Below, one piece after another: positions 5,342 to 26,566 of a stretch of DNA of 64,000 bases. Under the pieces are notes generated by a model. That model did not search any database and was not told the origin of the DNA. It saw only the letters and a program-made list of their open reading frames with translations. Within the stretch, counting starts at the first letter, position 1. The number at the start of each line of letters is the position of its first letter. The DNA comes from Candidatus Nomurabacteria bacterium (GTDB lineage: Bacteria; Patescibacteriota; WWE3; UBA101185; UBA10185). The translations under genes were made by a program, and so were the position numbers. Location of the stretch: positions 231,601 to 295,600 of the forward strand of contig JACKGU010000001.1 in assembly GCA_020631855.1 (NCBI GenBank), given 5' to 3'.

Positions 5342-5414
5342 TGATCTTCATTTATACCACTTAAGATAGTAGGTTTCAAATTGTGTTTAGGTTTAGGGCT
5401 TGGATTTGAAGGTT

Positions 5415-7517: not shown

Positions 7518-7754
7518 TATAATTTCGTTACTTACAACTATTTTCGCAAGCTAGCAGATGTAGTTCGCACAACATGCTGGGCTTTGCAGTGCAAAGAAAT
7601 TACAGTAAGCCACCTGTGTAAGCTGGTGGTAGTTGATAATTTCGTTACTTACAACTATTTTCGCAAGCTAGCAGATGTAGTTCGCACAACATGCTGGGCT
7701 TTGCAGTGCAAAGAAATTACAGTAAGCCACCTGCGTAAGCTGGTGGTAGTTGAT
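7518..7754 (+). repeat. Tandem duplication (two copies, 7518-7637 and 7636-7754) of the ~119-bp double-hairpin repeat, immediately 5' of the gyrB start
   Basis: The two copies differ by a single substitution (CCACCTGTGTAAGC versus CCACCTGCGTAAGC). Track ORF 7491-7760 is an artefact of this repeat. Confidence 0.9.
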
Positions 7755-8575: not shown

Positions 8576-10345
8576 ATGTCGAATACAATAACCAACAAAG
8601 GAATAGAAGACGTATTGTTTGAAAGAGGCCTTATTAATGACGATCAACTTTCGGCAATAAAGTTTGAACACGTTAACACAGGAAGAAGTACCTCCCAAAT
8701 AATAAAAGATAGGGCCTATGTAAGTACTCAGGACTTTCTAAAAGCCTTTGGAGAAGTCTACGGCATAGAATTTGTAGATTTATCCGAACTTAAGATAAAC
8801 CCTAATATTCTAGAAATTATTCCTGCAAGTTTACTAAAGAAATATCAGTGTGTGCCTTTTGAGCAAAATGGAGATGTGTTGTCTGTGGCTATGGTTGATC
8901 CGCTCGATTTACAGAACATTGAATTTATGGAAAGAAAATCCGGATTTAAAGTTAAACCGTACATTACTACCCCTGCTGATATAGATAAAGTTCTTGCCGA
9001 CACACAGGGAAAAGCAATTAGTGAAGAAATTAGTGCTGCGCTTGAGGAGTTAAGTCAGAATACTTTAAAGCTTAAGGGCGATTCCGGAGATTTGAATGCC
9101 GATGAAGCAACCATTAGCGATGCACCTATAGCAAGAATCGTAGGCATGATACTTGAAACAGCTGTAAAGATTGGCGCCTCAGATGTTCATATCGAGCCTA
9201 GAGAGACGGACACACGTTTGCGTTATAGAGTTGACGGTGTTTTACAGGAAAAACGAACTTTCCCAAGAGAAATGCACGACTCTATTATTGCTCGTATTAA
9301 AATCCTTGCCAACATGAAAATAGACGAAAAGAGAATTCCTTTGGACGGTAGGTTTAAGGTTGCTGTCGGTAACACAGGGACTGATCTAAGAGTTTCAACT
9401 CTCCCAACTGTATATGGCGAAAAGGTAGTTATCCGATTATTAAAAGAGGAAGGTGCGATTTTTACATTTAAAGATTTAGGTTTGCGCGGACTGTCTTTAC
9501 GAAGGCTCGAGGAAGCTTTGATTAAGCCTGTGGGTATGGTGTTGGTAACAGGTCCTACTGGTTCAGGTAAAACTGTTACATTGGCTTCAGCTCTTGCGAA
9601 GCTAAATTCAGTGCGTGTAAATATTGTGTCGATTGAAGATCCGGTTGAAATTAGAGTTCCCGGAGTATCTCATGTGCAAGTTAATCCTCAGGCTGGTTTG
9701 ACTTTTGCCACCGGGTTAAGAGCTTTTTTGCGCCAAGACCCTAACATAATAATGGTAGGAGAAATTAGAGATGGTGAAACTGCCGAACTGGCAATACATG
9801 CCGCTTTAACAGGCCACCTTGTTTTATCCACGTTACACACAAACTCCTCATCCGGAGCTTTACCAAGGCTTCTTGATATGGGAGTAGAAAGCTTTTTGCT
9901 TGCTTCTACTGTCAACGCAATTTTGGCCCAAAGATTGGTTAGGAAGATTTGTGAAAACTGTAAAGAAGAGTATGAGGCTCCTGCGGAGGTCGAAGAAGAT
10001 ATCAGAAAGATACTAGATGACATAAAAAGTTCAGATATTATTATGCATAAAGATCCAGATATAGCTAAAGCGATTCAGAGTGTAAAGTCAGATAAGATTA
10101 AGTTGTACAAAGGTAAGGGCTGTGATAAGTGCGGGCAGTCTGGTTACAAAGGACGAATAGGTATTTTTGAGGTTTTGGAAAATTCTACCAACATTGCGGC
10201 TCTAACTTTGGAGCATAAGCCCGAATCAATAATTCAAGAAGCTGCTGTGGCAGAGGGCATGCTCACTTTAATGAAAGACGGGTATTTAAGAGTAGTTGAG
10301 GGCATCACGACCCTTGAAGAAGTAATGAGGGTTTCGAAAGGATAG
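8576..10345 (+). CDS. pilB: Type IV pilus assembly ATPase PilB (GspE family) with N-terminal GSPII_E_N-like domain
   Basis: Walker A GPTGSGKT, secretion-ATPase motifs, and C-terminal Cys cluster CxxC...CxxC. 589 aa. Confidence 0.85.
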   Translation: MSNTITNKGIEDVLFERGLINDDQLSAIKFEHVNTGRSTSQIIKDRAYVSTQDFLKAFGEVYGIEFVDLSELKINPNILEIIPASLLKKYQCVPFEQNGDVLSVAMVDPLDLQNIEFMERKSGFKVKPYITTPADIDKVLADTQGKAISEEISAALEELSQNTLKLKGDSGDLNADEATISDAPIARIVGMILETAVKIGASDVHIEPRETDTRLRYRVDGVLQEKRTFPREMHDSIIARIKILANMKIDEKRIPLDGRFKVAVGNTGTDLRVSTLPTVYGEKVVIRLLKEEGAIFTFKDLGLRGLSLRRLEEALIKPVGMVLVTGPTGSGKTVTLASALAKLNSVRVNIVSIEDPVEIRVPGVSHVQVNPQAGLTFATGLRAFLRQDPNIIMVGEIRDGETAELAIHAALTGHLVLSTLHTNSSSGALPRLLDMGVESFLLASTVNAILAQRLVRKICENCKEEYEAPAEVEEDIRKILDDIKSSDIIMHKDPDIAKAIQSVKSDKIKLYKGKGCDKCGQSGYKGRIGIFEVLENSTNIAALTLEHKPESIIQEAAVAEGMLTLMKDGYLRVVEGITTLEEVMRVSKG

Positions 10346-10365
10346 CACATCGGTGCTTAAATAAA

Positions 10366-11439
10366 ATGGCAATAAACGCTTCACAGTTATTGGAAAAAGT
10401 AATAGAGGTTAACGCTTCGGATTTGCATTTGGTTGTCGGAATGCCCCCTTCCATAAGAGTTAATACAGTTCTATCTCGCCTTGATGATTACGGCATATTA
10501 AGTATTGAAGATATTCAATATTTTATTTCAAAAATACTTTCGCAAGATCAGCAAAATCTTTTTGATTTGAATAAAGAGCTAGATCTTTCAGTGGCTTTAA
10601 GCAACAAAGCTAGATTCAGAGTTAATGTTTTTTATCAAAAAGGATACCCTTCTGTAGCTTTAAGACTTATTCCCATGCTCGTTCCGAGCCTAGATTCCCT
10701 AAATTTACCGCCCATTATAAAAAATATAGGCGAATTAAAGCAGGGGTTAGTGTTAGTTGTCGGTCCTACAGGTAACGGCAAATCTACTACAATCGCTTCT
10801 ATGATAGATTACATCAATGAAACTCGTTCTGAGCACATTGTTACCGTTGAAGATCCTATTGAATACATTTTCACCAGCAAAAAATCTTTAATAGAGCAAA
10901 GAGAAATGTATTTAGATACTCATTCTTGGGAAGCGGCGCTAAAATCTGTTTTAAGACAAGACCCGAACGTTGTTTTTATTGGAGAGATGCGGGATAAAGA
11001 AACAATGGAGTCTGTTTTGAATATTGCTGAGACTGGTCATTTAGTTTTTGCAACTTTACATACAAACTCAGCTGCGCAAAGCTTGGATAGAGTTATTAGC
11101 TCGTTTCCCGAAACTCAGCAACTGCAGGTAAGGCTCCAACTATCTCAGGTCATCGAAGCGGTAATTTCTCAAAGGCTACTCCCCTCCCCTAATAAGGGCA
11201 CAGTTCCGGCCGTTGAGTTGTTGCTTGCCACTGATGCAGTTAGAAGTCTTATTAGAGAGGGCAAGGCTTATCAAATTGATAATGTTATAAGCACCGGTGC
11301 GACGTATGGAATGATGACTTTAGATGCAAGCTTGGCCTTGCTGGTTTCACAAAACTATGTAGATCTTGAAGAGGCCATGAAAAGGTCGCTAAATCCTGAA
11401 AATTTGAGAAGAATGTTAAAGATGGGAGGTTCTAAGTAA
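10366..11439 (+). CDS. pilT: Type IV pilus retraction ATPase PilT
   Basis: GPTGNGKSTT Walker A, PilT-family length (357 aa), ASDLHL N-terminal motif. Confidence 0.85.
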   Translation: MAINASQLLEKVIEVNASDLHLVVGMPPSIRVNTVLSRLDDYGILSIEDIQYFISKILSQDQQNLFDLNKELDLSVALSNKARFRVNVFYQKGYPSVALRLIPMLVPSLDSLNLPPIIKNIGELKQGLVLVVGPTGNGKSTTIASMIDYINETRSEHIVTVEDPIEYIFTSKKSLIEQREMYLDTHSWEAALKSVLRQDPNVVFIGEMRDKETMESVLNIAETGHLVFATLHTNSAAQSLDRVISSFPETQQLQVRLQLSQVIEAVISQRLLPSPNKGTVPAVELLLATDAVRSLIREGKAYQIDNVISTGATYGMMTLDASLALLVSQNYVDLEEAMKRSLNPENLRRMLKMGGSK

Positions 11440-12642
11440 ATGGCTCTTTACGAATATACGGGTGTAGACAACCTTGGGACAAGAAGATCCGGGAAAGTAG
11501 ACGCAAGATCTGTTGATACGGCTATTGCTCTGTTAAAAAACCAAAATATTCATGTTTTAAATATTGCCGAGAGCAAAGGAACTCTAATTAGCAATATCGG
11601 AGATCTACGAGGAGTTCCGTTTTCAGAGGTAGTTTCTTTTACAAGGCAGATGTCCACAATGATCGGGGCCGGTCTTCCAATCGCAAAAACTTTGGATGTG
11701 CTATCGCAGCAAACTACAAACACCAGGTTTAGAGTTATTTTAGGAGATATTTTACGTGATGTGGAGGGAGGAACTTCTATAGCAGCTTCGTTTAGTAAGT
11801 ATCCGGATGTCTTTTCCAAAACATATCAATCTTTAGTGCGTGCGGGAGAAGCTTCGGGAAAGTTGGATCAAATATTATTGCGTCTGGCCGATACTATGGA
11901 ATCTCAGCGAGAATTAAGAGCGAAATTTAAAACCGCAATGATATATCCGGTTTTGGTAATGGTTGCCATGGTTGGTGTCTTTTTTATGCTAATGGTAGTT
12001 GTTGTTCCGAAACTAGCCGATATGTACGAAAGCCTAGATGCGGAATTGCCAATTATTACTCAACTTATGATTAATCTTTCGGATTTCATGGTCAACAATT
12101 TAATAGTCATAATTCTTGGAATGTTCGGCGGATTATATCTAATTAGATCTTTTTCAAAGACTCCCGGAGGAAGAGAATTTTTTATCAAACTAACCTATGT
12201 CCTGCCCGTTTTTGGCGCAGTTAACAAAAAGAGGGATCTAACAGAATTTTGTCGAACCCTCGGTTTGCTTCTTACTTCTGCTGTTCCTATTGTTGAGGCT
12301 CTCGAGATTGTACACGACGTAGTCTCTTATTATCACTATAAAAATGGGGCTAAGTCCGCGGCCCAGACAATTGAAAAAGGAGGAACTCTCTCGGGGTACT
12401 TAAAAAGCGATTCCAGCTTTCCCCCGATAATAGGAAATATGGCTGCTACAGGTGAGGAAACGGGTAAGCTCGATGAGGTTTTAGATAGACTTGCTGAATT
12501 TTTCAACAGAGAAACGCAGCATGCTGTAGAAGGTCTGTCTGCAGCTCTTGAGCCGTTGATTTTAATAATGTTGGGAGGTATGGTAGCTGTTCTAATCATT
12601 TCGATAATTACTCCTATTTACAAAATTACAACCTCTATCTAG
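11440..12642 (+). CDS. pilC: Type IV pilus platform protein PilC (GspF family)
   Basis: Two GspF repeats and three TM segments. It immediately follows pilT (the stop and start are adjacent). Confidence 0.85.
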   Translation: MALYEYTGVDNLGTRRSGKVDARSVDTAIALLKNQNIHVLNIAESKGTLISNIGDLRGVPFSEVVSFTRQMSTMIGAGLPIAKTLDVLSQQTTNTRFRVILGDILRDVEGGTSIAASFSKYPDVFSKTYQSLVRAGEASGKLDQILLRLADTMESQRELRAKFKTAMIYPVLVMVAMVGVFFMLMVVVVPKLADMYESLDAELPIITQLMINLSDFMVNNLIVIILGMFGGLYLIRSFSKTPGGREFFIKLTYVLPVFGAVNKKRDLTEFCRTLGLLLTSAVPIVEALEIVHDVVSYYHYKNGAKSAAQTIEKGGTLSGYLKSDSSFPPIIGNMAATGEETGKLDEVLDRLAEFFNRETQHAVEGLSAALEPLILIMLGGMVAVLIISIITPIYKITTSI

Positions 12643-12713
12643 GTTATTTGAGGATGTTTTTGTAGGGCAGTTTAGCTTTGTAATTAAATAGAAAATTGAA
12701 AGGGGGTGAAGAA

Positions 12714-13232
12714 ATGACAAAACTAAACAAAAGAAACGAAAAAGGTTTTACATTAGTTGAACTTTTAATCGTTATAGCAATTATTGGTGTACTTGCAGGT
12801 GCAATATTAATAGTTATTAACCCTGCACAGTTATTGGCTAAGTCCAGAGATTCACAAAGACTACAGGATTTAGACTCTCTAAATAAGGCAATAACATTAG
12901 CTATTGCAGAGCAAGAGATAACAATAACTACCACCACAGGTAACTCCGGAACAGGAACTAGGTCTGTAACAGGAGGAGGATGGGTCGGCTTTACACTTTT
13001 CACAGGTAAGACCGCCGGTTTAGGAAAGTATATTCCAACACTTCCTGTTGATCCTACAAACACAGGAAACTACGTGTATTCATACGCGGCAGATGCAACT
13101 TCCGGATCTTATGAATTGAACGCTGTTTTAGAGTCAACAGATAACCAGGCAAAAATGGGAACTGACGGAGGCTCCAGCGCAACTAAGTGGGAAGTAGGTA
13201 CGAACTTGGAACTCATTGATCCGACCCCGTAG
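12714..13232 (+). CDS. pilA: Type IV major pilin (prepilin)
   Basis: MTKLNKRNEKG|FTLVELLIVIAIIGVLA is a class III signal peptide with Gly-1/Phe+1 and Glu+5. A strong SD (AAGGGGG) sits 7 nt upstream of ATG 12714. The track start 12696 is a TTG. Confidence 0.85.
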   Translation: MTKLNKRNEKGFTLVELLIVIAIIGVLAGAILIVINPAQLLAKSRDSQRLQDLDSLNKAITLAIAEQEITITTTTGNSGTGTRSVTGGGWVGFTLFTGKTAGLGKYIPTLPVDPTNTGNYVYSYAADATSGSYELNAVLESTDNQAKMGTDGGSSATKWEVGTNLELIDPTP

Positions 13233-13351
13233 TAATTGTGTGCGCTTCGTGATCGCGCATACTTTTTATGGTCTTTAACTGAGTTAACTAAGTTAAATAT
13301 TTTCTTTAGACTTATGTCTATGTCTGAGGAAAAGGTTAAGTATGCATCTGA

Positions 13352-13378
13352 GGTGCGGAGCCCAAAGGGCTCCGCACC
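13352..13378 (+). terminator. Perfect 12-bp GC-rich hairpin (GGTGCGGAGCCC-AAA-GGGCTCCGCACC) directly after the major pilin gene. It is followed by A8, not T. Possible U-tract-less terminator or mRNA stabiliser.
   Basis: Palindrome read directly from the sequence. Its position after a highly expressed pilin gene is typical for partial terminators. Confidence 0.4.
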
Positions 13379-13504
13379 ATCAAAAAAAATACTGCAATCC
13401 CCTCCTCTCTTTACGGCAAGTATTCTGTAAAACTCTTCACCTTTAAAGAATTTTTGTTATACTAATTTAAGTTAATATTTATTTAAACTGCCTAGCGTAA
13501 TGAA

Positions 13505-14428
13505 TTGGAGAAAATTATGGATTATATAACAGTTTTACTTTATGCAATGCTCTTTATATCAGGAGCTTTTTTGGGATCTTTTATTAATGTAGTGGCCGAT
13601 CGTGCCAGCAAAGGTCAGAGCTTTTTATTTGGCCGCTCTAAGTGCGAGACCTGTAACAAGGTTTTGTCGCCAAGAGATTTGATTCCGGTGCTGTCCTATT
13701 TACTAGCAAAAGGAAAATGCAGGCACTGTAAAGAGAAACTATCTTTGTGGTATCCGATATCCGAAATTGTTACCGGAGCTCTTTTTGCAGGTTTGGCTTA
13801 TTATCTGAATCTTTTTGTTAATGTTTCATACGCTTATGTTTGGGTGTTTTACGTATATTTTGCAATAGTCGGCATGTCCTACATTGCCTTGTTTTTAGCA
13901 GATATCAAATATATGCTTTTGCCGACAAAAATAGTTGTTCCAACAATAGCTTTTGTATTGCTGTTTTTAGCCGGTAATGTGGGCTTTACAATTATATCCT
14001 CATATAAAGCTTTGCAGGCAGATGATTTCGGTAAGTATTTAATAGAGTCGGGGTACTGGCAGACACAGATTTTGCTCATGCTAAGGTCTGTAGCCTATTC
14101 AGTAGGCAGCGCGGCGGCAATTGCTTTATTCTTTTGGATTTTAACCAAAATTAAGCAGGGTCAAGCTATGGGTAAGGGGGATATAAAACTGGCTTTTCTT
14201 ATTGGTCTGGTAAACGGATTTCCTTTTAATGTTCTCGCAATTTTCCTAGGATTCTTAATGGGCGCACTTTACAGCGTAGGTTTATTGGCATTAAAAAAGA
14301 AAACCTTACAAAGCACAATTCCTTTTGGACCATTTCTTATCGTAGGCAGTGTAGTGTCCATCGTTTACGGAGCACAATTACTAAATTGGTTCTTTTCTCT
14401 ATCTAACTTAGTTCCCGCTGCAATGTAG
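13505..14428 (+). CDS. pilD: Prepilin peptidase / N-methyltransferase PilD (A24 family)
   Basis: N-terminal CxxC...CxxC zinc motif (CETCNK...CRHCKE), multiple TM segments, GKGDIKLAF catalytic-Asp region. Confidence 0.85.
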   Translation: MEKIMDYITVLLYAMLFISGAFLGSFINVVADRASKGQSFLFGRSKCETCNKVLSPRDLIPVLSYLLAKGKCRHCKEKLSLWYPISEIVTGALFAGLAYYLNLFVNVSYAYVWVFYVYFAIVGMSYIALFLADIKYMLLPTKIVVPTIAFVLLFLAGNVGFTIISSYKALQADDFGKYLIESGYWQTQILLMLRSVAYSVGSAAAIALFFWILTKIKQGQAMGKGDIKLAFLIGLVNGFPFNVLAIFLGFLMGALYSVGLLALKKKTLQSTIPFGPFLIVGSVVSIVYGAQLLNWFFSLSNLVPAAM

Positions 14429-14469
14429 TTTTGTAGGAAAATTCTTATTTGGTTTGATTTAATTTGTGA

Positions 14470-14498
14470 GGGGCCCGCATCTAAAGATGCGGGCCCCC
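14470..14498 (+). terminator. Perfect 12-bp GC-rich hairpin (GGGGCCCGCATC-TAAAG-GATGCGGGCCCC) after pilD, with no U-tract
   Basis: Palindrome read from the sequence. It has the same architecture as the hairpin after pilA. Confidence 0.4.
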
Positions 14499-14604
14499 AC
14501 CCTTTCGCCCATCCCCTTCTCTACGTTACTCTCATTCTTTGAAATTTTCTTTTCAAGACAACTGCTTTGTTGACTACCATCTGTCTTTTGTATAACATTT
14601 GTAT

Positions 14605-15171
14605 ATGCGACCCATACTGTCTACTGTAAAAAATCGTTTAGCCACATTTTCGTCTGCAAAAAAGACCACAAAAATTCTTTTAATACTTCTAGCGGGCACA
14701 TTTTTAATATTTGGATTTTTATTATTAAGTTCCATGGTTTGCTCTAAAAATAGCTCCTTATTTTGCTCCCGGCTTGCAGTATTATCAAATAATTCGGCTG
14801 ACCAAAAAACAGGGCAAGAACCGAACAACAGTATCTTTTCAAGCCCGGGAATCATTGAAACAGAAACGGGTATTTGGGATGGGCCTAAGTTTATTAGTAG
14901 CGGGGTGACGGGCTCTGAAAGTATTATATATAATGGAAATCTGGCGGCAGCCGATCTATCGAAACCTTCCATGACGCTGACAAAGAATAATGTTTCTACA
15001 GAAATAATTATTGATACAAACACCTTGAATCTTTATTACGCACCACATTCGGACTCGGCAAATCATGAAAACTACCCTATTTCTTCCCTCGAAGATCTCT
15101 TCTTAAAATTGAAAGACGGTGATTTTGTATCATATTTTCCTGGAAAGTTTATAATTGTTCTGTACTATTAA
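14605..15171 (+). CDS. Hypothetical membrane-anchored protein (one N-terminal TM segment)
   Basis: ORF with hydrophobic segment ILLILLAGTFLIFGFLLLSSMV. The first ATG is at 14605 (the track start 14599 is a TTG). Confidence 0.45.
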   Translation: MRPILSTVKNRLATFSSAKKTTKILLILLAGTFLIFGFLLLSSMVCSKNSSLFCSRLAVLSNNSADQKTGQEPNNSIFSSPGIIETETGIWDGPKFISSGVTGSESIIYNGNLAAADLSKPSMTLTKNNVSTEIIIDTNTLNLYYAPHSDSANHENYPISSLEDLFLKLKDGDFVSYFPGKFIIVLYY

Positions 15172-15190
15172 GGCTGCAGGTATTAACAAA

Positions 15191-18100
15191 ATGTACTTAA
15201 TTAAAAACATATTTTTACGATTAAAAATAAAAAGCTTTATTACAGTTGCAAATCCTTTAGCAGCCGGTGCTTTATTTTTAGCAACACTAATTTTTAGTGC
15301 TTCGAGCTTTAGTATTTTTGCACAGGCATGCGCTCCTGATAGTGGGGAACATCACACCTATGATGAATACTTTGTCAACCCGAGGTGTGGTCTTTGGGAT
15401 TTTCCTTGTATAGGCAGTCAATGCGTCGTTAATGAAGGCTACGGTAATCAATGCAACGCCGGTATAGCCAACAATTGTTTGGCGAAAACCAATCAACTGT
15501 CTGAGGGCGAATGTACTGCCATTGGTTATGCTTTTCCTTGTTACTATACCAATATTTGGCCACAACCGCCGTGCTCCACATGTGGGAGCACCGCGGCTGC
15601 AGCGAACCCTCTTTGTGGATCAGATGAATATACCCCATCTGTGTGCACTGTTGCCCCCGATGCTGCCTGCCCTACTAGCACCGTCCCAATACCTGATACA
15701 GACACGCCGGTTACCATTGAAGTTAGAGGTGTTAAGAATGTTCCACGTGACGAGGGCCATGTCTATGGGTTGATGTGGTTTAATAGCGAGAATTCTAGTA
15801 ATGCAGTACGTGTTGACCTTGAAAGGCAAAATGATGCTCTTGGAAATTATACTGGAATTTATAGGAAAACTTTTACACCTTGTGCTACTTACGGCAAGTG
15901 CTATTCTGGGACCGCCAATGAGATGTTGTGGTTCGATGTCTGGATGTCTAATGATAACATAGGTTCGGACACATTTTATTGCGATGACGCAAACTTCTGG
16001 ACCACCCCTCCTACAGCGTCTGAGGATCCTCCATACGCAAGCTTAGCTATTGAGAATCTAACAAGGTCACTTTATTATTCTACGGCTGATGCCGTTTTCA
16101 TAAATGACAATGAAAGAGTTAGAGTTATCGGACAAGGTTTTTCTAATCCAAGTTCTCCTGACATAAATCAAATGAATTTAAGATCGTGCAGTTCTTCTCA
16201 AACTTGCCTCGATGCGAACTCGTCGACAACTGTTGCAACTAGTTCTACCGGTATAGTAGAGACCGAGCTCTCATTCAGTGCCGGAGCGGTTATTAGATAT
16301 TTGGTTAACGCTAGGAATACTACTGCGGCAGGAGCTAATCAGTGGTGCGTTGGATATACTGATCCGGGCTCGTTCGTAAAGTGCGTAAGAAATAATCTAC
16401 CCAACCCTTCCTATAAAGATCTTATAACTTTAAGAATTAATAACTCTCCGCACGCATCGCTTTCAGCTACAGATACAGATACTGGAACTAACTACACAAA
16501 TTCTAGTTTTACAATTTCTCAAGGTACAACACTAAGCTTTACGGCTAACGCTAGCGATACCTATGCAGGCGGAAATCCGGGTATTGTAACCGGAATTTAT
16601 CTAAAAAAATGCAATGACGCCAATAATTGCTCCGGTCTGACCCAAGTCTCTGAGGTTGCAAGTTGCACTAGCGACTCGGGAGTCTCAACTTGTTCTACAC
16701 AGCCTTCGCAATACATAACCTTTAATACTCCCGGAACTTACAAATTTTTAGTAAATGCTGCAGATAATGCTGACCCGAAGGCCTGGTGCTACAGTTACCC
16801 AAATTATAACTATTCGGCCCTTGATGCATATAAGCCTTGTAAAAGAGGCTCAGACACTTTGCCGAATGTGTTAACAATCACCGTGACTGCCGTTAATCAA
16901 GCACCTACAGGTTCCATCGAAACTATAAACTGTTCCTTAGGAGGAAGAGTCTGTGATACTGATGGGGATCGTAATATTATCGTAGTCCCAGGTAACATAA
17001 TTTCTTTTCAGGCTGTTGGTCAGGATGATGGTGGAATCAACTACACAAGAATTGCTTATTGCGAGACTGCCAATTGTGCAAGCCCTACAACGCTGACTAG
17101 CGCTTCTGGGGCTGTCGCATTCTACAATCGCACTTTCTTTCCGGCAGATATAGGGAAGAGCTACTACTTCTTTGTAACGGCAGATGACAATGGGTCTCCC
17201 ACACTTAGTTGTTCAGGAAATCCTTCAGCCTCAACTTATTGCGATAGGCCTTCTAACACAATAGACAAATACACTGTTACTGTGAGCGCAGCTCCAAACG
17301 CATTGCCTGAAGGAACTATTCAATTAGGTACTTCGGCACCCGGTACGATCCAGACTCTAAATCTTGGAGATTCAGGTACTATCGTAGCTAATGTAACTGA
17401 CAGCGATGGCTACATTAACTCTAGCCAAATCATTTACTGCCCTAGCGGCTTTAATAATTGCAGCCCAGCTGACGGTAGTGGTCTGATACTTTCAACTTGC
17501 GGCGTGAACGTTTCACAATGTTCCATTGGATACACTTTTAATACTGTTGGGCCTGCCTATTTTGTTGTCAGAGCTACCGATGATGACTCCGGTGTGTGTT
17601 CGGGGCAGTCTGCCGCCGCAGCTTCCAGATGCGATAGGTCCCTTCCTCTCGACGAAGATAGGTTGACAGTAAATGTCGTTAACAATACCGGTACCACCGA
17701 AAGCTTAACGGGTATTACCTATAACGTTAGTGATGTGGCGGCATGTAGTAATATTACGACCTCGCCAAGGCTCACTTCGGGTGCTGTACAGGAGAGTCTT
17801 TCGGTCACCTATATTAACCACGCAGGTACTTCATATAACGGGAACTGGACAGATGCCAACGGAAACTTTGAAATCAGCAATATACCTATTCCGGAAAACG
17901 GAGATTTGTGTGCGACCGGTAGTTTTACCGACAGTGTCGATTCAAGGTACAGGTACGACTTAGTTTGTTACTCAGATGGAACAACCGTGCAGACACTTAA
18001 CACAAGCTCGACCTGTGCCAGCAATATTACACTCCCAGGCTCTGGAAGCAACAATTATTTCGGTTATGTGAAAGTAGACACTTACCAAGAAGCTTGGTAT

Positions 18101-18940
18101 AGAGTTATTGGAGGTATAGTTGTAAGTTTAGGTGATATAGCTAATACAATAACCAATCCTTATGATTCCGCCCTTGCTTTCTTGGCAACTAGACTAAGCC
18201 TTACTAACGTAAATGTCTCAGCTTTTAGCCGCGGTGCTTTTGATGTGACGAATGGCAAAATAGCACAGCCAGATGCTAATGAAGCTTCTAGCCAAAGATA
18301 TTTCAGCAACATGCCGCCTGAGTTAACTTTTTGGGATACATCTTTTAATTTTGATCCCCCTGCTGGCACCCTAGATTCTCCCCTGCCTTCGGGAAATATT
18401 TGGGGACTTACTAAAGACGTATATAAAATTTCTGCGGCCTCATTAAATGGTATTTTGTCTAGTTCTACTGATGTACTGACATATAATGTTGATTCTAAGA
18501 ATTTAGCAATAATATATGTAATTGCAGACAGCCCAACAGATGTGCTCGTAAAGCGAAGACTGAACACAGGAACAGGGAAACTAATGTTTATAGGAAGTGA
18601 GAATGTTAACTTTGTTTTTGACAGTTCGGTTGGAGTTGGGTGCAATACCAATACGGTTAACAGCATATTTAGAGCAGCCATTATTACTCAGGGTAGCGTG
18701 TATTTTAATACTTCTGGAACCAACAACGACAGCTGTATAGTTGTAGATGGACCTCTCATTGCGGGTGTACCTAATGACAATACTACCGGGAGAATATATT
18801 TATTTAGAAACATGAGTGCGGCCCCAACCGGTAATAGAATTCCTACCGAACAGGTTAGATATAATCCGCAGTATATATACTTGACCGACGAGACTACCGG
18901 TATTATGGTCACGGACGTTATTTGGGAGGAGCTCGAATGA
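15191..18940 (+). CDS. Giant (about 1250 aa) secreted Cys/Ser/Thr/Asn-rich protein; candidate pilus-associated adhesin
   Basis: N-terminal hydrophobic signal-anchor (PLAAGALFLATLIFSASSFSIFAQA), more than 60 Cys, a long uninterrupted ORF, and a stop TGA that overlaps the ATG of the downstream PilX-like gene (ATGA). Confidence 0.6.
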   Translation: MYLIKNIFLRLKIKSFITVANPLAAGALFLATLIFSASSFSIFAQACAPDSGEHHTYDEYFVNPRCGLWDFPCIGSQCVVNEGYGNQCNAGIANNCLAKTNQLSEGECTAIGYAFPCYYTNIWPQPPCSTCGSTAAAANPLCGSDEYTPSVCTVAPDAACPTSTVPIPDTDTPVTIEVRGVKNVPRDEGHVYGLMWFNSENSSNAVRVDLERQNDALGNYTGIYRKTFTPCATYGKCYSGTANEMLWFDVWMSNDNIGSDTFYCDDANFWTTPPTASEDPPYASLAIENLTRSLYYSTADAVFINDNERVRVIGQGFSNPSSPDINQMNLRSCSSSQTCLDANSSTTVATSSTGIVETELSFSAGAVIRYLVNARNTTAAGANQWCVGYTDPGSFVKCVRNNLPNPSYKDLITLRINNSPHASLSATDTDTGTNYTNSSFTISQGTTLSFTANASDTYAGGNPGIVTGIYLKKCNDANNCSGLTQVSEVASCTSDSGVSTCSTQPSQYITFNTPGTYKFLVNAADNADPKAWCYSYPNYNYSALDAYKPCKRGSDTLPNVLTITVTAVNQAPTGSIETINCSLGGRVCDTDGDRNIIVVPGNIISFQAVGQDDGGINYTRIAYCETANCASPTTLTSASGAVAFYNRTFFPADIGKSYYFFVTADDNGSPTLSCSGNPSASTYCDRPSNTIDKYTVTVSAAPNALPEGTIQLGTSAPGTIQTLNLGDSGTIVANVTDSDGYINSSQIIYCPSGFNNCSPADGSGLILSTCGVNVSQCSIGYTFNTVGPAYFVVRATDDDSGVCSGQSAAAASRCDRSLPLDEDRLTVNVVNNTGTTESLTGITYNVSDVAACSNITTSPRLTSGAVQESLSVTYINHAGTSYNGNWTDANGNFEISNIPIPENGDLCATGSFTDSVDSRYRYDLVCYSDGTTVQTLNTSSTCASNITLPGSGSNNYFGYVKVDTYQEAWYRVIGGIVVSLGDIANTITNPYDSALAFLATRLSLTNVNVSAFSRGAFDVTNGKIAQPDANEASSQRYFSNMPPELTFWDTSFNFDPPAGTLDSPLPSGNIWGLTKDVYKISAASLNGILSSSTDVLTYNVDSKNLAIIYVIADSPTDVLVKRRLNTGTGKLMFIGSENVNFVFDSSVGVGCNTNTVNSIFRAAIITQGSVYFNTSGTNNDSCIVVDGPLIAGVPNDNTTGRIYLFRNMSAAPTGNRIPTEQVRYNPQYIYLTDETTGIMVTDVIWEELE

Positions 18941-19884
18941 TGTTAAGCACTATCTCTAAAATGAATTACAGAAGAATTAATGAAATAAAATCGGAGGCAG
19001 GCCAGGTTCTATTGTTTGTGGTTGTAACCATGACAGTTGCCCTTGCTTTGGGAGTAGGCGTATCTCTACAAACCATCTCCACTATATCTGATGTTGCGGA
19101 TACAGATACTGCGCAAAGAGTGTTGGCCGCAGCCGAGGGTGGAGGAGAGAGGGCTTTATCTTTGAAACAGACAGATTTAGCAAATTTAGCAAATGCAAAA
19201 AAAGCAAATAACCTTCCAGGGTACCAAAATTTATGTGCCCCAGCTTTTGGAGATTCTGTTACGGGGGAATTTTTGTGCAAGTTGAACTTTACGCCTGCTG
19301 CAGACTCGGGTGATCCTATATTACTTGAATCTCAGATTGGCGTTGAGTACTTTACATTTAATAAGGAAACCCAAGATGGAACACCCTATTACGAATTTGC
19401 ACTTGGACAGAACAAAGTAAAAGAAGTTGTTATGAACGAATCCAAATCAATAGCAGATATAAAGGTGTGTTGGACCGGAGAGGATGGTTTGTTTTATACA
19501 TCGTATAGCAATAGTGCAAATTTTTATAGACAGGACATTATTTGCCCAGTTGTGGGATGTCCTTCAGGAGTGGGTTCGAACGCCATATCTTCTACAGCAA
19601 GCGATATTTCCGGCTTTAATCAATGTGCTACTCTAAGTACCGGTGATTATGGTACTACTCCGAAGGGGCTTCGATTTAGAACTTTAGGAGCCGACACTAG
19701 GGTTGCCGTAGTCACCGCATCGCCCTTTTTTCCTCCCCAGGGTATTAAAATAACGTCTACAGGTCTACTTGCTGTTCCTGGACAGCCCCCGATAAAAAAA
19801 ATAGTTAGAGTTTATAGGTCTTTTGCTTATGCTCCTGCTCCTTTTGACTTTGCGATTTATTCCGAATCTGAATTAAGTAAATAA
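18937..19884 (+). CDS. PilX-N-like minor pilus protein
   Basis: N-terminal GQVLLFVVVTMTVALALGVG resembles the PilX N-terminal domain. RBS GGGAGGA sits 6 nt upstream. The ATG overlaps the stop of the giant gene. Confidence 0.55.
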   Translation: MMLSTISKMNYRRINEIKSEAGQVLLFVVVTMTVALALGVGVSLQTISTISDVADTDTAQRVLAAAEGGGERALSLKQTDLANLANAKKANNLPGYQNLCAPAFGDSVTGEFLCKLNFTPAADSGDPILLESQIGVEYFTFNKETQDGTPYYEFALGQNKVKEVVMNESKSIADIKVCWTGEDGLFYTSYSNSANFYRQDIICPVVGCPSGVGSNAISSTASDISGFNQCATLSTGDYGTTPKGLRFRTLGADTRVAVVTASPFFPPQGIKITSTGLLAVPGQPPIKKIVRVYRSFAYAPAPFDFAIYSESELSK

Positions 19885-20108
19885 ACCTTATAGTATAGCT
19901 ATTTTACTATTTAAAAAATTTAATTTCTAAATAAGCCCACCCGCTTGACACTCCCCCGCTATTTGATGCATACTTACTGTATGAGTTTTCTGCCCAACAC
20001 CTTTCTCTCACTCTTCTATAATTTGTTTAATAAAAGAGTTTCTGTTTTAACAATCACCTCACGGCATACAAGATTTATTAGATTTTATCTTGGAGGGAGG
20101 TGTAAGAT

Positions 20109-20543
20109 ATGAAAAACATTAAAAATAATTCAAAAGGTTTTACACTTATTGAGCTCTTGATAGTCATCGTTATTATTGGTATCTTGGCAGGTATTGTGCT
20201 CACGGTTTTAAATCCAGCAAGACAACAACAGCGAGCAAGAGAAACAGTTTTGAGAGCTAATACAGAAAAAGTGTGTCTCGCACTTCATTCGTGTGCGGTA
20301 ACAAGCTCCTCAGCTTTAAACTGTGATGATTGGACCGATATAGGTGCTATAAATCCGACCGGTACGCCTACAGGCTCAACTTATCCAATAAGCCCTAGCC
20401 CTGCGACAGCCGCTGGTGACACAATAACAATTACAGGCACTCTAGGTTCCTGTGTATTTACTTGTAATTACAACTTTACTAACTCAACGGCTGGTCAATT
20501 AGCCCTTGGCACGGGCGCTACTTGCCTCATTGGAGTTCAGTAG
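20109..20543 (+). CDS. Type IV pilin/pseudopilin (prepilin N-terminus KG|FTLIELLIVIVIIGILAG)
   Basis: Class III signal peptide. Strong RBS GGAGGGAGG. Confidence 0.8.
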   Translation: MKNIKNNSKGFTLIELLIVIVIIGILAGIVLTVLNPARQQQRARETVLRANTEKVCLALHSCAVTSSSALNCDDWTDIGAINPTGTPTGSTYPISPSPATAAGDTITITGTLGSCVFTCNYNFTNSTAGQLALGTGATCLIGVQ

Positions 20544-20559
20544 TTTTTCAGTGAATTCT

Positions 20560-20592
20560 ATGCCCCTTCTCCAGAAGGGGCATTTTCTTTTT
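20560..20592 (+). terminator. Rho-independent terminator (ATGCCCCTT-CTCCAG-AAGGGGCAT followed by TTTCTTTTT)
   Basis: 9-bp stem plus T-rich tail, 17 nt after the pilin stop codon. Confidence 0.6.
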
Positions 20593-20665
20593 CTGAACAC
20601 CTTAAAAAATGTTGTATATTTGTATCGTTCAGAAAGTGTGTTAACATTTATATAGTAAACTGCCT

Positions 20666-21205
20666 ATGTATAAAATAAAAAAAATTTCACAATCAAAAAA
20701 TAAAGGCTTTACGTTAATAGAGTTGCTCATTGTAGTTTCTGTATTGGGCATATTGGGAGGAGTTTTAACCACAGTTATAAACCCTAAAGTACAAAGAGCT
20801 AAAGCTCAGGATTCTGTTTATGCAACAAATATTCAAAAGCTTGCAGAGGGCATTGAGGCATATTACATTACCGGAAATGGCGTAGCGTATCCGGCTGAGG
20901 ACCCTTCGGGATCTTTAAGTAACGTAATAGCAGACCCGAATAATAACTTATCAAAATACATCGCAACATGGCCGACGGATGCTGCTTATGAATATAGAGT
21001 TTCCAGTGATTCCACAAACGCTTGCTTAAGCGTGCCTATGGCATCAGATCCCGATGTTCGCATAAAGTATGTTTTTAAGTCTTCGACCTCTGGAGCTTGT
21101 TCTGGAAGAGTTGTTAGAGATTGTACGTACAGTTGTTATGAGGGTTCAAGTTTCAATACCAACCTTGATGGTTGTAATTCTTTGACCGGAAATGCCTGTA
21201 ATTAA
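20666..21205 (+). CDS. Type IV pilin/pseudopilin (NKG|FTLIELLIVVSVLGILGG)
   Basis: Class III signal peptide. Confidence 0.8.
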   Translation: MYKIKKISQSKNKGFTLIELLIVVSVLGILGGVLTTVINPKVQRAKAQDSVYATNIQKLAEGIEAYYITGNGVAYPAEDPSGSLSNVIADPNNNLSKYIATWPTDAAYEYRVSSDSTNACLSVPMASDPDVRIKYVFKSSTSGACSGRVVRDCTYSCYEGSSFNTNLDGCNSLTGNACN

Positions 21206-21225
21206 TTTAATGGGTTTTTTACATT

Positions 21226-21723
21226 ATGTATAACAAAAGAAACAAAAATTTAAATCCCGGTTCAGGATTTACATTAATAGAGATTCTGATAGTAGTCGTG
21301 ATAATTACGGTCATTAGCGGAGCAATTTTATCTTTAATAAACTCCGAAGGCTTAAGAGGCAAATCTCGTGATGCTCAGAGAGTTGCTGATATTAAAAAAA
21401 CTCAAAGTGCTTTGGAACTATATTTTGCTGACAACAGGCAGTACCCTGATACATCTTCAGATAAATCTGAGCTGGCGGATATAAGCAGTTTTCTGAGCAG
21501 CTACATGAGTGTAACTCCTACGGACCCCTTAAATACTGGGCAAGTTGACAACCTGTGTGGCAACAGCGCGGTCTATAAATATGTCTATCAATCTGATGGT
21601 TCAGAGTATTATTTAGGAGTTAATATGGAGGATAGTAGGTCAGCCGAGCCTTCCCCTTGTACGGACTTTAGCCTTTTTTGTAACTCTGCCGAAGCAACCT
21701 GTTATGCGGTTCGTAATCCTTAA
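21226..21723 (+). CDS. GspG/PulG-like pseudopilin
   Basis: GSG|FTLIEILIVVVII...RDAQRVADIKKTQSALELYFADNRQYP matches the GspG core motif. Confidence 0.8.
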   Translation: MYNKRNKNLNPGSGFTLIEILIVVVIITVISGAILSLINSEGLRGKSRDAQRVADIKKTQSALELYFADNRQYPDTSSDKSELADISSFLSSYMSVTPTDPLNTGQVDNLCGNSAVYKYVYQSDGSEYYLGVNMEDSRSAEPSPCTDFSLFCNSAEATCYAVRNP

Positions 21724-21725
21724 AG

Positions 21726-22208
21726 ATGCAAACTAGAAGTTCATCCGGCTTAACTTTAATTGAATTAACTATTACTCTTGGCATTATTGTTATTCTAGCT
21801 TCTGTTTTGCTATTGGTAATGGAAATACCCGAACTTGAGCAAAAAGCAAGAGATAATAAGAGACTTAGTGACATTGCTACTATAGAGCGGATAATAAACG
21901 AGTATGCAAATAACGCTAAAAGCTTTCCGGGCATTGCGAATACAACTTACGCAAGCAATGTAATACCTGATGAAGAAGAAGGCCAGGATATCTTGGTGTC
22001 GGGGTGGATATACGCCGATTTCACGCTATACTCCCCTACTCTACCCATTGATCCTAAAAACACAGATAACCACGTTTATTCTTATAGACATAATGGTAAG
22101 GCTTACGAAATAAACGCGTCTTTAGAATACTTTGACAACTTAATGCAAGAAGACAACGGAGACGACCCCGCTCTATATGAGGTGGGTACAAATTTGAGTA
22201 TTTTGTGA
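21726..22208 (+). CDS. Pilin-like protein with atypical leader (SSG|LTLIELTITLGIIVIL)
   Basis: Prepilin-like N-terminus with Leu at +1. Confidence 0.65.
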   Translation: MQTRSSSGLTLIELTITLGIIVILASVLLLVMEIPELEQKARDNKRLSDIATIERIINEYANNAKSFPGIANTTYASNVIPDEEEGQDILVSGWIYADFTLYSPTLPIDPKNTDNHVYSYRHNGKAYEINASLEYFDNLMQEDNGDDPALYEVGTNLSIL

Positions 22209-22238
22209 GATTTATTAAAAGTCTGTATACTTAAATAA

Positions 22239-22769
22239 ATGAAAAGATATACTGCTCAATCAGGCTTTACGCTTATAGAAATGATGATGGTTATTGCCAT
22301 TATGGCAATACTTTCTGGGTTTCTACTTCCCGGTTTGGGGAAATATTTAGACTCTCAATCTCTGTTTCAAGCTCAAGACCAAGTTAAAGGAGATTTACGC
22401 TCTATTCAAACCAGAGCTCTCACCGGAGCCGGTTTTAATGGCACGTATAAGTATTGGGGTGTAATGTTTGTTAACGACCAAAATAAATATGAATATTTTT
22501 TATCGGCTTCAAACAATGACACTACTTGCACTAATGCGGATTTTGACACCCAAGGTACCAGTCAGAGACTACCGGGAAACATGAAAATAGTAAAAACCGA
22601 TTCCGGGGCAGCATCTAATTGTTACTATTTTGCATTTGATAGCGGAAACGCAAATTTTGCCTCTGGGGCTGGTAATATATACATTGGTAACGGGACAAGT
22701 TGCGTCAAAATTACTATAAATTCTGCTGGATTTATTACAGCAGATAGATCTATTGTTGCTTGTAATTAA
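22239..22769 (+). CDS. Pseudopilin (GspH/FimT-like; QSG|FTLIEMMMVIAIMAIL)
   Basis: Class III signal peptide. Confidence 0.75.
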   Translation: MKRYTAQSGFTLIEMMMVIAIMAILSGFLLPGLGKYLDSQSLFQAQDQVKGDLRSIQTRALTGAGFNGTYKYWGVMFVNDQNKYEYFLSASNNDTTCTNADFDTQGTSQRLPGNMKIVKTDSGAASNCYYFAFDSGNANFASGAGNIYIGNGTSCVKITINSAGFITADRSIVACN

Positions 22770-22819
22770 GTTTTGCATCTTAGTATTGCAGTTGAATGCC
22801 GGTATTTAAGGCTACTTAT

Positions 22820-23386
22820 ATGCTATTAAAAGTTAAAAAATTTGTTCAAAATATATATTGGAGGCAAAATCGCCATTTCACAAATTCTCCGCAAGCCGGA
22901 CTGGGGCTTATTGAGACTGTTGTTGCTATGGGAATGTCAGTTTTGGTTATAACCACCCTAGTGTCCTTGTCGGTTTTTACCTTGCGTTCTTCGGTTCGCA
23001 GCAATATGTTTTTACGAGCTTCCAAATTAGCAAACAAACAAATGGAGCTGGTTAGAGCATATAGAGATCAGTCTGCTCTATCCTGGGAACAATTTTTAGT
23101 TACATTAGATGATTGTGACGGTGCAGGACAATTTTGCTTTATGGATGACAATGTTGTTGTTCAGGGTGACAAGTATCGAGACGGCACAGCCCTTAATTTA
23201 GTGACTGTGTATTTTAATATAATTGATCCGGCCAACGATCATCCAAACGATAGCCCTCCAGATGTTGATCCGGAAGATCCCGTTATTAGAGTTTCTGTTA
23301 TAGCTTCTTGGAGCGATATTGCGGGGGGCTCTGCCGATAAAAGTGTTTATGTATATACCGATTTATCTAATTGGCAGAATAAATAA
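22820..23386 (+). CDS. Minor pilin-like protein (AG|LGLIETVVAMGMSVLVITTL)
   Basis: Prepilin-like hydrophobic N-terminus with Glu+5. The start was chosen at an internal Met, so the 5' end is uncertain. Confidence 0.55.
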   Translation: MLLKVKKFVQNIYWRQNRHFTNSPQAGLGLIETVVAMGMSVLVITTLVSLSVFTLRSSVRSNMFLRASKLANKQMELVRAYRDQSALSWEQFLVTLDDCDGAGQFCFMDDNVVVQGDKYRDGTALNLVTVYFNIIDPANDHPNDSPPDVDPEDPVIRVSVIASWSDIAGGSADKSVYVYTDLSNWQNK

Positions 23387-23986
23387 ATGATTTTTGCGAA
23401 TACTAAATATTTACATAGAGTCAAGCCGGTCTGTAAAAGAAAGGATCGGGACGAACAGAAAGGATTTACTTTGCTCGAGTTACTCATTGTCATTGCTCTG
23501 TTGACAATTACTGTTGGGGTCACGGGTGACATAATTTTATCTTTGGTAAGAAGCTACAGTAAAACAAGGGTAACAAATGAGGTTGAACAAACAGGAAATC
23601 TGGCAATGTCTAAGATTGAAAAAGAGTTTCGCGCTGCCCTCTCAGTTTCCTCCCCTGCGCTAGGGGATACTGGAGATGAGCTAAGTTTTATTAGGGTAAT
23701 AGATGGAGTAGAACACACAATTACCTATACAGTAGAAGTTACCGGCGGGCTACTTAGGAGAGAAGACATAAACGGGACAAATATTTCCACTGCTGCAATA
23801 ATTGATGGGGAGGAATCGGCAATTAAAAACCCGGATACCGCTTTTAGCCTAGTCCAGGAAAATCCTTATGTTGTAAAAATAAATTTTGAGCTTAGACAGG
23901 GAGACTCAACACTTCCTGAGACAAGTCCTTTCGCGTCGAAAATTGATCTAGAAACAACTGTAGTAGCCAGAGGATCTTATAGATAG
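23387..23986 (+). CDS. Pseudopilin (GspJ/PilW-like; QKG|FTLLELLIVIALLTI)
   Basis: Class III signal peptide after a 26-aa leader. Confidence 0.7.
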   Translation: MIFANTKYLHRVKPVCKRKDRDEQKGFTLLELLIVIALLTITVGVTGDIILSLVRSYSKTRVTNEVEQTGNLAMSKIEKEFRAALSVSSPALGDTGDELSFIRVIDGVEHTITYTVEVTGGLLRREDINGTNISTAAIIDGEESAIKNPDTAFSLVQENPYVVKINFELRQGDSTLPETSPFASKIDLETTVVARGSYR

Positions 23987-23997
23987 GTAGACTATTT

Positions 23998-24873
23998 ATG
24001 TTTATTTTATTAAGTAAGTTTTGTTCCGGAAGGGTTAAAAATAAATTAAATACCTTCGCAGACGACCATCCCTATTCAGAAAGCGGCCAGGTCTTGGTAA
24101 TAATGGTTTTTGTTATGGTCATTGCTCTTGCTCTGGGCGTATCGATGTCAAACAAGTTCTTATCCGGGACTAGAAATATTACAAACGCTACCCTTGGCTT
24201 GCGGGCACAGGGAGTTGCAGAAGCCGGAATAGAGAACATTTTATTAAAAACAAATGACGAGCTTTACGACTATATTCAATACAACAGCTGCGGGGACAGC
24301 TGTATTGTCTCTTGGACAAACGCCGACGGACTAGTTGAAACAGCTACAATAACGCTAAGCACTCTAGGTAGTTCTTCTGATGCTTATATTTTTCAAATAT
24401 CTCAGAACGAAGTAGAGGAGATAAATTTAAACGGTTACCCCGAGGATACTTCGCTGACTCTTTGCTGGGATGATGATTTTTCTGAGTACACTAGTGTCTA
24501 TGCTGAACTGCTGTCCGGCACTGTTGGTAGTTATACTCTTACACCCCTTGCTTATAACTCCATAAATTATGGCGGAAACAGCAATGGGTTTGACTCTGCC
24601 TCGAGCCAGTTAGGGTATGATAGCTGTTTTGATGTAAATTCAGGCTCCGATCCTTTATCATTAAGAATTCGTATTTTTGGTTCAGATGCAACCATCGCAA
24701 TAATACCCTCTTCTTCTACAGACCTTCCTGCCCAGGGAGTGCTAATTGAATCGGTCGGTGAGGTAGCAGGAACTTATAAGAAAGTTGCAGTAATAAGAAA
24801 AGACGCTTTCATGGGCCCGGAATTTAGCTATGTGCTTTTTTCAACTTCTGAAAACAGCCCGTTGTCTAATTGA
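23998..24873 (+). CDS. Second PilX-N-like minor pilus protein
   Basis: GQVLVIMVFVMVIALALGVSMS N-terminal segment, similar to the 18937-19884 protein. Confidence 0.55.
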   Translation: MFILLSKFCSGRVKNKLNTFADDHPYSESGQVLVIMVFVMVIALALGVSMSNKFLSGTRNITNATLGLRAQGVAEAGIENILLKTNDELYDYIQYNSCGDSCIVSWTNADGLVETATITLSTLGSSSDAYIFQISQNEVEEINLNGYPEDTSLTLCWDDDFSEYTSVYAELLSGTVGSYTLTPLAYNSINYGGNSNGFDSASSQLGYDSCFDVNSGSDPLSLRIRIFGSDATIAIIPSSSTDLPAQGVLIESVGEVAGTYKKVAVIRKDAFMGPEFSYVLFSTSENSPLSN

Positions 24874-24916
24874 TTTAGGAGTAGAATATTTTTTAAATAT
24901 TCTGTAGACTTATATT

Positions 24917-25969: not shown

Positions 25970-25974
25970 CTGCC

Positions 25975-26565: not shown

Positions 26566-26566
26566 T

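Follow-up and report, generated by a model that had tools for sequence, protein, structure and literature searches.

The stretch of DNA analyzed here (in the following, the window) comprises 64,000 nucleotides from a Candidatus Nomurabacteria bacterium, an uncultivated and ultrasmall member of the CPR, and contains a complete type IV pilus (T4P) cluster at 8576-27397, on the forward strand, which also carries the features of the cluster given below unless stated otherwise. The genes of the cluster occur in the order pilB, pilT, pilC, pilin, pilD, a gene for a small membrane protein, a gene for a protein of 1249 residues, K1, p1-p7, K2, pilM, pilN, and pilO, where p1-p7 denote the seven pilin-like genes between K1 and K2. 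Our subject is the 1249-residue protein (the large protein), a secreted, Cys-rich, modular protein encoded at 15191-18940 including the stop codon (the large gene), and its relationship to K1 (18937-19884), a PilX/GspK-like minor pilin paralog of 315 residues which we propose as its docking partner. A first-pass annotation, made from the sequence alone, had taken the large protein for a secreted non-pilin tied to a PilX-like gene and for a candidate tip adhesin; as detailed below, its last ~285 residues define a small, previously undescribed protein family of about 15 members, whose genes are found next to K-like genes almost without exception.

The large gene lies in an uninterrupted open reading frame (ORF; 15155-18940), whose first ATG, at 15191, yields the 1249 residues and is also the start annotated in five out of the six public contigs shown. 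By our calculation, random codons at 39% GC (guanine plus cytosine) contain about 6.5% stops; a stop-free frame of 1250 codons in DNA of this composition thus cannot be due to chance. The protein has 44 Cys residues, fewer than the more than 60 that had been claimed, which amount to 3.5% of its length as compared to 1.0% in window ORFs of at least 200 residues (about 3.5-fold). Several of the pilin-like proteins (p1, p2, p3, and p5; 20109-22769) are likewise Cys-rich (2.3-4.2%), and this richness thus appears to be general to the exported pilus proteins of the organism, beyond the large protein. The combined share of Ser, Thr, and Asn is 29.7% over the large protein and up to 42% in residues 401-500, in agreement with the long stretches rich in these residues that had been described. 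The GC content of the gene is indeed raised (43.1%, against 39.4% for the window), but at the third codon position it falls inside the range of the neighboring genes (0.362, within 0.29-0.38), with the excess located at the second position (0.498); this reflects a composition rich in Ser, Thr, Ala, Gly, and Cys and is no sign of a foreign origin, and horizontal transfer as an inference from the raised value was rejected in view of the ordinary third position. The protein contains 30 N-x-S/T sequons, where shuffled sequences have 21.4 ± 3.9 (p about 0.03), an excess that weakly supports a possible glycosylation. The only sequence variant of the large gene seen is its closest cluster representative, P0001 (395 residues), a shortened copy which matches residues 1-381 at 99% identity, differs by a single A-to-T exchange (TPPTASEDPP to TPPTTSEDPP), and has 14 unrelated residues as its tail; this copy is probably an assembly fragment that stems from a contig end or is frameshifted.

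At its N-terminus (residues 1-46; 15191-15328), the large protein shows the n-h-c layout of a signal peptide, with a K/R-rich n-region, a hydrophobic core at residues 16-45, which is the sole hydrophobic segment of the protein, and a c-region ending in AQA|C. It is probably a Sec signal peptide cut by signal peptidase I after AQA, rather than a signal anchor, since an AxA-type site is present in every family member; the signal-anchor assigned previously is to be corrected accordingly. The Cys at +1 was considered as the mark of a lipoprotein, a reading rejected for the poor lipobox and its absence in the other members. A sortase-anchored (MSCRAMM-like) surface adhesin was rejected as well, as no LPXTG sorting motif was found near the C-terminus and a C-terminal hydrophobic tail is lacking. 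The protein further shows no class III prepilin motif of the type G-F-T-L-x-E and no N_methyl match; having neither a prepilin signal nor a pilin helix, it is not a modular type IV pilin of the kind seen in S. sanguinis PilB/PilC and TM7x PilX1/PilX2. Searches with the large protein against Pfam, NCBIfam, and the PDB sequences gave no significant match, nor did Pfam and NCBIfam searches with eight segments of it.

Following the signal peptide, the chain begins with a Cys-rich module (residues 47-165; 15329-15685), which was delimited by the positions of its 13 Cys and has no family match, and continues into a region of unknown fold (residues 166-330; 15686-16180), which has no family match either and no likeness to the internal repeats. 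These repeats, four in number, divergent, and of about 100-140 residues each, occupy residues 331-830 in tandem (16181-17680) and share conserved Cys pairs and the pattern 'Y-F-V-x-A-x-D … T-V-x-V'. BLAST self-comparison of the large protein detects none of them; they were found by Smith-Waterman alignment combined with shuffling, the pairwise local alignments scoring 5.1-7.4 z units above 200 shuffles, with the observed score reached in 0 of 200. In Pfam they approach InlK_D3, PKD, and Cadherin_4 (E 0.04-0.23, all below the gathering scores), and they weakly match the cadherin-like repeat proteins P0002 and P0007; judged by these resemblances, they are probably stalk domains similar to immunoglobulin (Ig), PKD, or cadherin domains. 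A linker domain (residues 831-963; 17681-18079), weakly similar to CarboxypepD_reg (Pfam E 0.011, below cut-off), leads into the conserved C-terminal core (residues 964-1249; 18080-18937), as delimited by homolog searches and alignments. The extreme C-terminus of the core (…GIMVTDVIWEELE; 18902-18937) is the proposed donor β-strand, for which the conserved end in 15 members and the analogy to PilC/PilY1 speak.

It is this core that defines the family. A word-indexed homolog search with the full large protein gave no match, and an exhaustive search with phmmer, covering 1.84 billion cluster representatives, found seven, comprising the shortened self-copy described above, two instances of cadherin-repeat noise, and four proteins (P0003-P0006) that cover only the C-terminal ~350 residues. 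The family was built by iterated alignment and profile searches, which added one and then six proteins, and from loci fetched via PilC and K1; its members with known context are all found in Patescibacteria-type T4P loci. No account of it was found in the literature; the core has no match in Pfam, NCBIfam, or the PDB sequences, and Pfam and NCBIfam searches with all family members gave nothing significant. All members have a signal peptidase I-type signal peptide and none has a prepilin motif, a second transmembrane (TM) segment, or an LPXTG motif, so that retention at the cell would need a protein partner. In 15 of 15 members, the chain ends 2-4 residues past a conserved W or F.

The N-terminal parts (the payloads) are as variable as the core is constant. 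Long forms comprise the window protein with its 1249 residues, L009 (~880), L008 (686), L007 (~690), L089 (~790), and P0005/L092 (790); the short forms (P0009-P0014; 328-346 residues), which account for six of the ~15 members, consist of a signal peptide and the core alone. Every payload of a long form is rich in Cys (2-8.5%), and those of the other long forms are unrelated to that of the window protein by BLAST (best E 0.15); they also start with Cys-rich modules, which are not alignable to residues 47-165. The linker domain is partly conserved, aligning with P0004, P0005, P0008, and L089. By eye, the payload of L009 contains a PA14-like stretch and two PKD-like repeats. A conserved core combined with unrelated payloads points to a conserved anchor with variable business ends, in which payloads have been exchanged between members. 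In L007, a gene convergent to that of the family member (4699-6657, reverse strand) encodes a secreted protein of 652 residues which ends in …VQWKNVE and whose C-terminal third bears a weak resemblance to the core (E 0.001, small database); this protein may belong to a remoter branch of the family, with no pilus genes visible around it.

The strongest evidence for a link to the pilus is the conservation of the gene neighborhood across relatives. Over 23,750 bp the window is 100% identical to contig JACKGV010000006.1 (assembly GCA_020631795.1), and all public contigs bearing the large gene are at least 99.98% identical across the whole locus and represent the same strain; the organism is met repeatedly in metagenomes from digesters and wastewater. 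When PilC is compared to the genome collection, the nearest species-level relative is a metagenome-assembled genome of 'candidate division WWE3' (WWE3 UBA1379, locus L009) at 59% identity, followed in rank by other Patescibacteria. In nine of the ten loci with downstream sequence (the window, L008, L009, L014, L089, L090/L091, L092, L093, and L094), the gene directly downstream of the core-domain gene is K-like, as recognized by the K profile at E 1e-71 to 1e-112; an overlap of 4-8 nt is present in six to seven loci, and elsewhere the gap is no wider than 40 nt. In genomes with a long form, there are two K paralogs, which fall into separate ortholog groups (K1 and K2), and the large gene always adjoins K1; genomes with a short form have a single K, and pilD, the core gene, and K all overlap. 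In L009, where the pilus locus is otherwise colinear with the window, the genes for the small TM protein, the large protein, and K1 are missing between pilD and p1 and are instead flanked by gyrB and holB, which shows that these three genes have moved as a unit. The gyrB-holB intergenic region of the window, which corresponds to the site of this cassette in L009, contains a tandem duplication in perfect register (7519-7754; 117 bp x 2.0, 99% match). In L090, L093, and L094, the core gene overlaps the 3' end of pilD by 38 nt, and K in turn overlaps the core gene by 8 nt, which makes three overlapping genes in a row; among the short forms, the first ~12 residues (M-x-x-G-F-L-H-G-T…) are conserved, which may be due to the overlap with the reading frame of pilD.

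This neighborhood bears directly on whether the large protein is instead a protein of the cell surface or S-layer which is in no physical contact with the pilus and is simply encoded in the same operon. Among Patescibacteria, surface proteins with a Cys-rich composition and Ig repeats are widespread, and the large protein has no significant similarity to any pilus protein. A bystander of this kind would nevertheless be hard to reconcile with a K gene kept alongside in nine of ten loci across proteins that are only 20-29% identical, with a cassette that relocates together with K1, with the overlap of the genes, and with the lack of a wall-anchoring motif; we consider it improbable.

Within the window, the coupling to K1 is close. 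The TGA of the large gene (18938-18940) overlaps the ATG of K1 (18937-18939), a second in-frame ATG follows at 18940-18942, within 'GAATGATG', and a Shine-Dalgarno-like GGGAGGA (18923-18929) is placed 7 nt upstream of the first ATG, inside the last codons of the large gene; both the ATGA overlap (18937-18940) and the embedded GGGAGGA are thus as first described. The N-terminus of K1 has Gly at -1 (SEAG|QVLLFVVVTMTVALALG) and a hydrophobic helix, with Phe (no Glu) at +5. K1 is a paralog of K2 (23998-24873; 291 residues; 25% identity, E 9e-19), a second PilX/GspK-like protein whose gene has a conserved position before pilM. K2 directly follows p6 and p7 (22796-23986), PilV/GspI-like and PilW/GspJ-like minor pilins which were assigned by weak NCBIfam matches to PilV, GspI, GspJ, and ComGF, with an N_methyl motif in p7; K1 has no such position after I and J. 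The arrangement p6-p7-K2 matches the I-J-K order of minor-pilin genes (PMC13533445), and p6 and p7 are presumed to be the I-J partners of the tip complex. Of the K family models, PilX_N (PF14341) reaches E 0.25 and T2SS_GspK E 0.028, each in one of nine aligned members and neither in the window protein, and the K profile has no match among the PDB sequences. The label 'PilX-like' for K1 rests on its N-terminal features, its paralogy with K2, and synteny, including the I-J-K-type gene order.

We propose that the large protein is a non-pilin, pilus-tip-associated modular adhesin whose C-terminal domain, with its terminal strand, docks onto a PilX-like paralog dedicated to it, and give this proposal a probability of about one half. 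It was arrived at from the export by Sec without a pilin helix or an anchor, the variable N-terminal and conserved C-terminal parts, the defined position of the terminal aromatic residue, and the coupled K partner. In PilC/PilY1, the last ~10 residues insert as the final β-strand of a minor pilin of the PilK/PilX/GspK family, according to a 2026 study (PMC13533445), which also predicts such strand donation for MshQ, a protein of ~1200 residues that is not a homolog of PilY1; the terminal W or F of the 15 family members fits this mechanism of strand completion. By analogy, the large protein would be exported through Sec as a non-pilin accessory protein of the T4P, and its C-terminal ~285-residue domain, ending in the strand …DVIWEELE, would dock on co-translated K1. 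K1 with the docked large protein would then join the GspI/GspJ-like p6 and p7 in a pilus-priming complex and be carried with it to the tip of the pilus. From there, the ~920-residue N-terminal part (the Cys-rich module, the unknown domain, the four Ig-like repeats, and the CarboxypepD_reg-like domain) would project as a disulfide-stabilised stalk and head, and bind to the surface of a host cell or substrate.

The same export signal without an anchor, and the same tight linkage to a minor-pilin gene, would also be expected of a pilus-dependent effector which is bound transiently to the minor pilin and then released or delivered to a host. There is precedent for secreted factors that bind to tip pilins (Oki et al. 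2022, reference 49 in PMC13533445). TcpF and CofJ, secreted by type IVb pilus systems, reportedly bind the tip minor pilins TcpB and CofB. Patescibacteria, however, are thought to lack an outer membrane, so that export by Sec alone would free such a protein; the conserved extreme C-terminus and the dedicated K paralog look more like a stable structural interface, and searches of Pfam and NCBIfam with the whole protein and with its segments revealed no toxin or enzyme domain. We thus regard an effector as improbable as well.

Several observations weigh against the proposed tip adhesin. When the payload was compared segment by segment to the adhesin domain models of Pfam (E up to 5), no significant match was found. 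The K label itself lacks a significant family match, so that the annotation of the downstream gene as PilX-like can be upheld for its N-terminus, its paralogy with K2, and its synteny, but not at the level of family assignment. Moreover, a similar C-terminal segment, F-D/N-F-x-φ-x-S, is retained in K1 and K2 as well as in the single-K proteins, and none of them obviously lacks a strand that would have to be supplied in trans. The adjacency to K is not universal: L007, on a contig of 7.5 kb, has a family member with the convergent 652-residue gene in place of an adjacent K gene, and loci from Woesebacteria and Collierbacteria have a K-like gene before pilM and no core-domain gene within 10 kb. 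The predicted structure gives little guidance. When the core was modeled twice with AF2, from alignments of six and 12 sequences, the mean values of the predicted local distance difference test (pLDDT) were 47.8 and 55.1, i.e. of low confidence, with the terminal strand below 50; only residues ~90-240 of the core reach 70-83, in short β-strands and one short helix. The core is thus predicted as a β-rich domain, possibly solenoid-like. Foldseek comparisons of this low-confidence model to the PDB gave nothing significant (best E 0.17), the top of the non-significant list being taken up by β-solenoids (ice-binding proteins, left-handed β-helix (LβH) acyltransferases, hemolysin A, and Ag43); for the DUF3494 fold of the ice-binding proteins, the best E of 0.17 and template-modeling scores of at most 0.32 amount to a likeness to generic β-solenoids only. 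Viral structures gave no significant match. Finally, binding to K1, donation of a β-strand, location at the tip, adhesion, and disulfide formation are all points that we infer, as is every step of the mechanism beyond the large protein being encoded next to K1. The candidate tip adhesin of the first-pass annotation has thus gained substance from the core family, the adjacency to K in nine of ten loci, the variable payloads, and the relocation of the cassette, which support the part about a secreted non-pilin tied to a PilX-like gene; for adhesion and the tip, the standing is as before.

A further point against the proposal is that the six short forms, in which signal peptide and core are set between pilD and a single K and overlap both, have no payload at all, so that the primary role of the family may be in pilus assembly, not adhesion. 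The core would in this case act mainly as a priming or licensing factor together with the K pilin, and the large N-terminal extension would be secondary, for example a spacer across the wall or S-layer. In PilY1/PilC, the role in assembly is separable from that in adhesion (PMC13533445). It is hard to see, however, why large, Cys-rich, repeat-bearing, and mutually unrelated payloads would be attached to an assembly factor unless they had an outward role in binding or recognition; assembly and tip adhesion are also compatible, as PilY1 does both. As an account of the family in its own right, a mainly assembly-directed role appears unlikely to us, if less so than the surface protein or the effector.

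Set beside known tip proteins, the large protein has an even chance, in our estimate, of being a functional analog, not a homolog, of PilY1, PilC, and MshQ. With PilY1/PilC of Pseudomonas, Neisseria, and Myxococcus it shares the nature of a large non-pilin with a Sec signal peptide whose gene adjoins that of a PilX/PilK (GspK-family) protein, the variable N-terminal and conserved C-terminal parts, and an extreme C-terminus that could act as the inserted ~10-residue strand. It differs from them in that its core is modeled as a small β-rich domain of ~285 residues, not a seven-bladed propeller, in that its gene lies upstream of the K gene, not downstream, and in that its host is of Patescibacteria type and presumably monoderm. 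The absence of homology to PilY1, as originally noted, is confirmed: there is no match to the PilY1/PilC domain (PF05567, Neisseria_PilC) in Pfam or NCBIfam, at E up to 0.1 for the whole protein and up to 5 for segments, and there are no PilY1/PilC chains among the Foldseek matches in the PDB, which, given the low confidence of the core model, is weak evidence on the fold. MshQ of the Vibrio cholerae MSHA pilus resembles the large protein in its ~1200 residues, its lack of homology to PilY1, and its position next to the PilK homolog MshP (PMC13533445); gene order and lineage are different, there is no detectable sequence similarity, and the interaction of MshQ is itself only predicted.

A second group of proteins carries the pilin-like part in cis. 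In Saccharibacteria, large T4P proteins that are candidates for the tip promote host binding, and deletion of PilX2 lowers it (PMC11623550). As in TM7x with PilX1/PilX2, the largest protein of a patescibacterial T4P locus would be the candidate host-binding component of the tip (PMC11623550); in TM7x, however, a pilin-like helix is fused to a jelly-roll or a β-propeller in one polypeptide, whereas the window encodes two polypeptides, K1 as the pilin-like part and the large protein, whose signal peptide is of the usual kind. ComZ of Thermus thermophilus and CpaL/TadG of Tad pili are also large tip-associated proteins, which combine a β-solenoid or large insert with the function of a minor pilin, but ComZ and CpaL have their own pilin-like domain in cis; ComZ appears at rank 12 of the Foldseek list, without significance (E 1.6, probability 0.13).

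The gene upstream of the large gene (14605-15171) encodes a small protein of 188-190 residues with an N-terminal membrane anchor, which by its TM segment and position is a candidate for the third member of the cassette. Its reading frame ends 19 nt ahead of the ATG of the large gene, and it has one strong hydrophobic segment at residues ~25-45. A protein of similar size and similar topology precedes the large gene in L007, L008, L009, and L089; similarity between these proteins is significant only for L007 and L008 (E 4e-8), with the window protein reaching E 0.26 to that of L008. Public gene callers disagree at 14574-15171, where they place either a 188-residue membrane protein on the forward strand or an antisense ORF of 132-149 residues plus a fragment of 66; the forward-strand reading fits the small TM protein found upstream in the relatives, although the gene call is uncertain. 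On the other side of K1, the p1 pilin gene (20109-20543) has a promoter-like TTGACA-18-CATACT upstream (19945-19974) and is directly followed by a strong terminator-like hairpin with a T-run (20560-20583); p1 may thus be a separately and highly expressed major pilin, rivaling for that role the pilin encoded at 12696-13232. Outside the cluster, 38666-41359 encodes a class A penicillin-binding protein (transglycosylase and transpeptidase) with a C-terminal Ig-like Big_7 domain (E 8e-8), and the remainder of the window is occupied by housekeeping genes (RelA/SpoT, RecG, PheT, GyrB).

For the attachment of Patescibacteria to their hosts, T4P are the best-supported device, with a binding component identified only in a few oral Saccharibacteria. 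What would be new here is a non-homologous family of tip-associated accessory proteins in Patescibacteria, whereas its mode of working, by its resemblance to that of PilY1, PilC, and MshQ, would be a known one. If the proposal holds, the docking domain paired with a GspK-like pilin would make it possible to track down the variable tip protein by sequence in metagenomic data from this clade, the turnover of payloads could be related to host range, and the recently proposed rule that a tip adhesin completes the sheet of PilK would hold for a further lineage and for a protein family that has no relation to PilY1. More tentatively, and with the odds against it, the docking domain may allow one clade of Patescibacteria to mount exchangeable Cys-rich recognition modules on its T4P, with K1 bearing the strand-docked tip, K2 a 'plain' one, and swaps of the payload setting the specificity for host or substrate. 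This would make for one machine with two alternative tips, and would mean that ultrasmall bacteria arrived at the PilY1/PilC principle independently and with non-homologous proteins.

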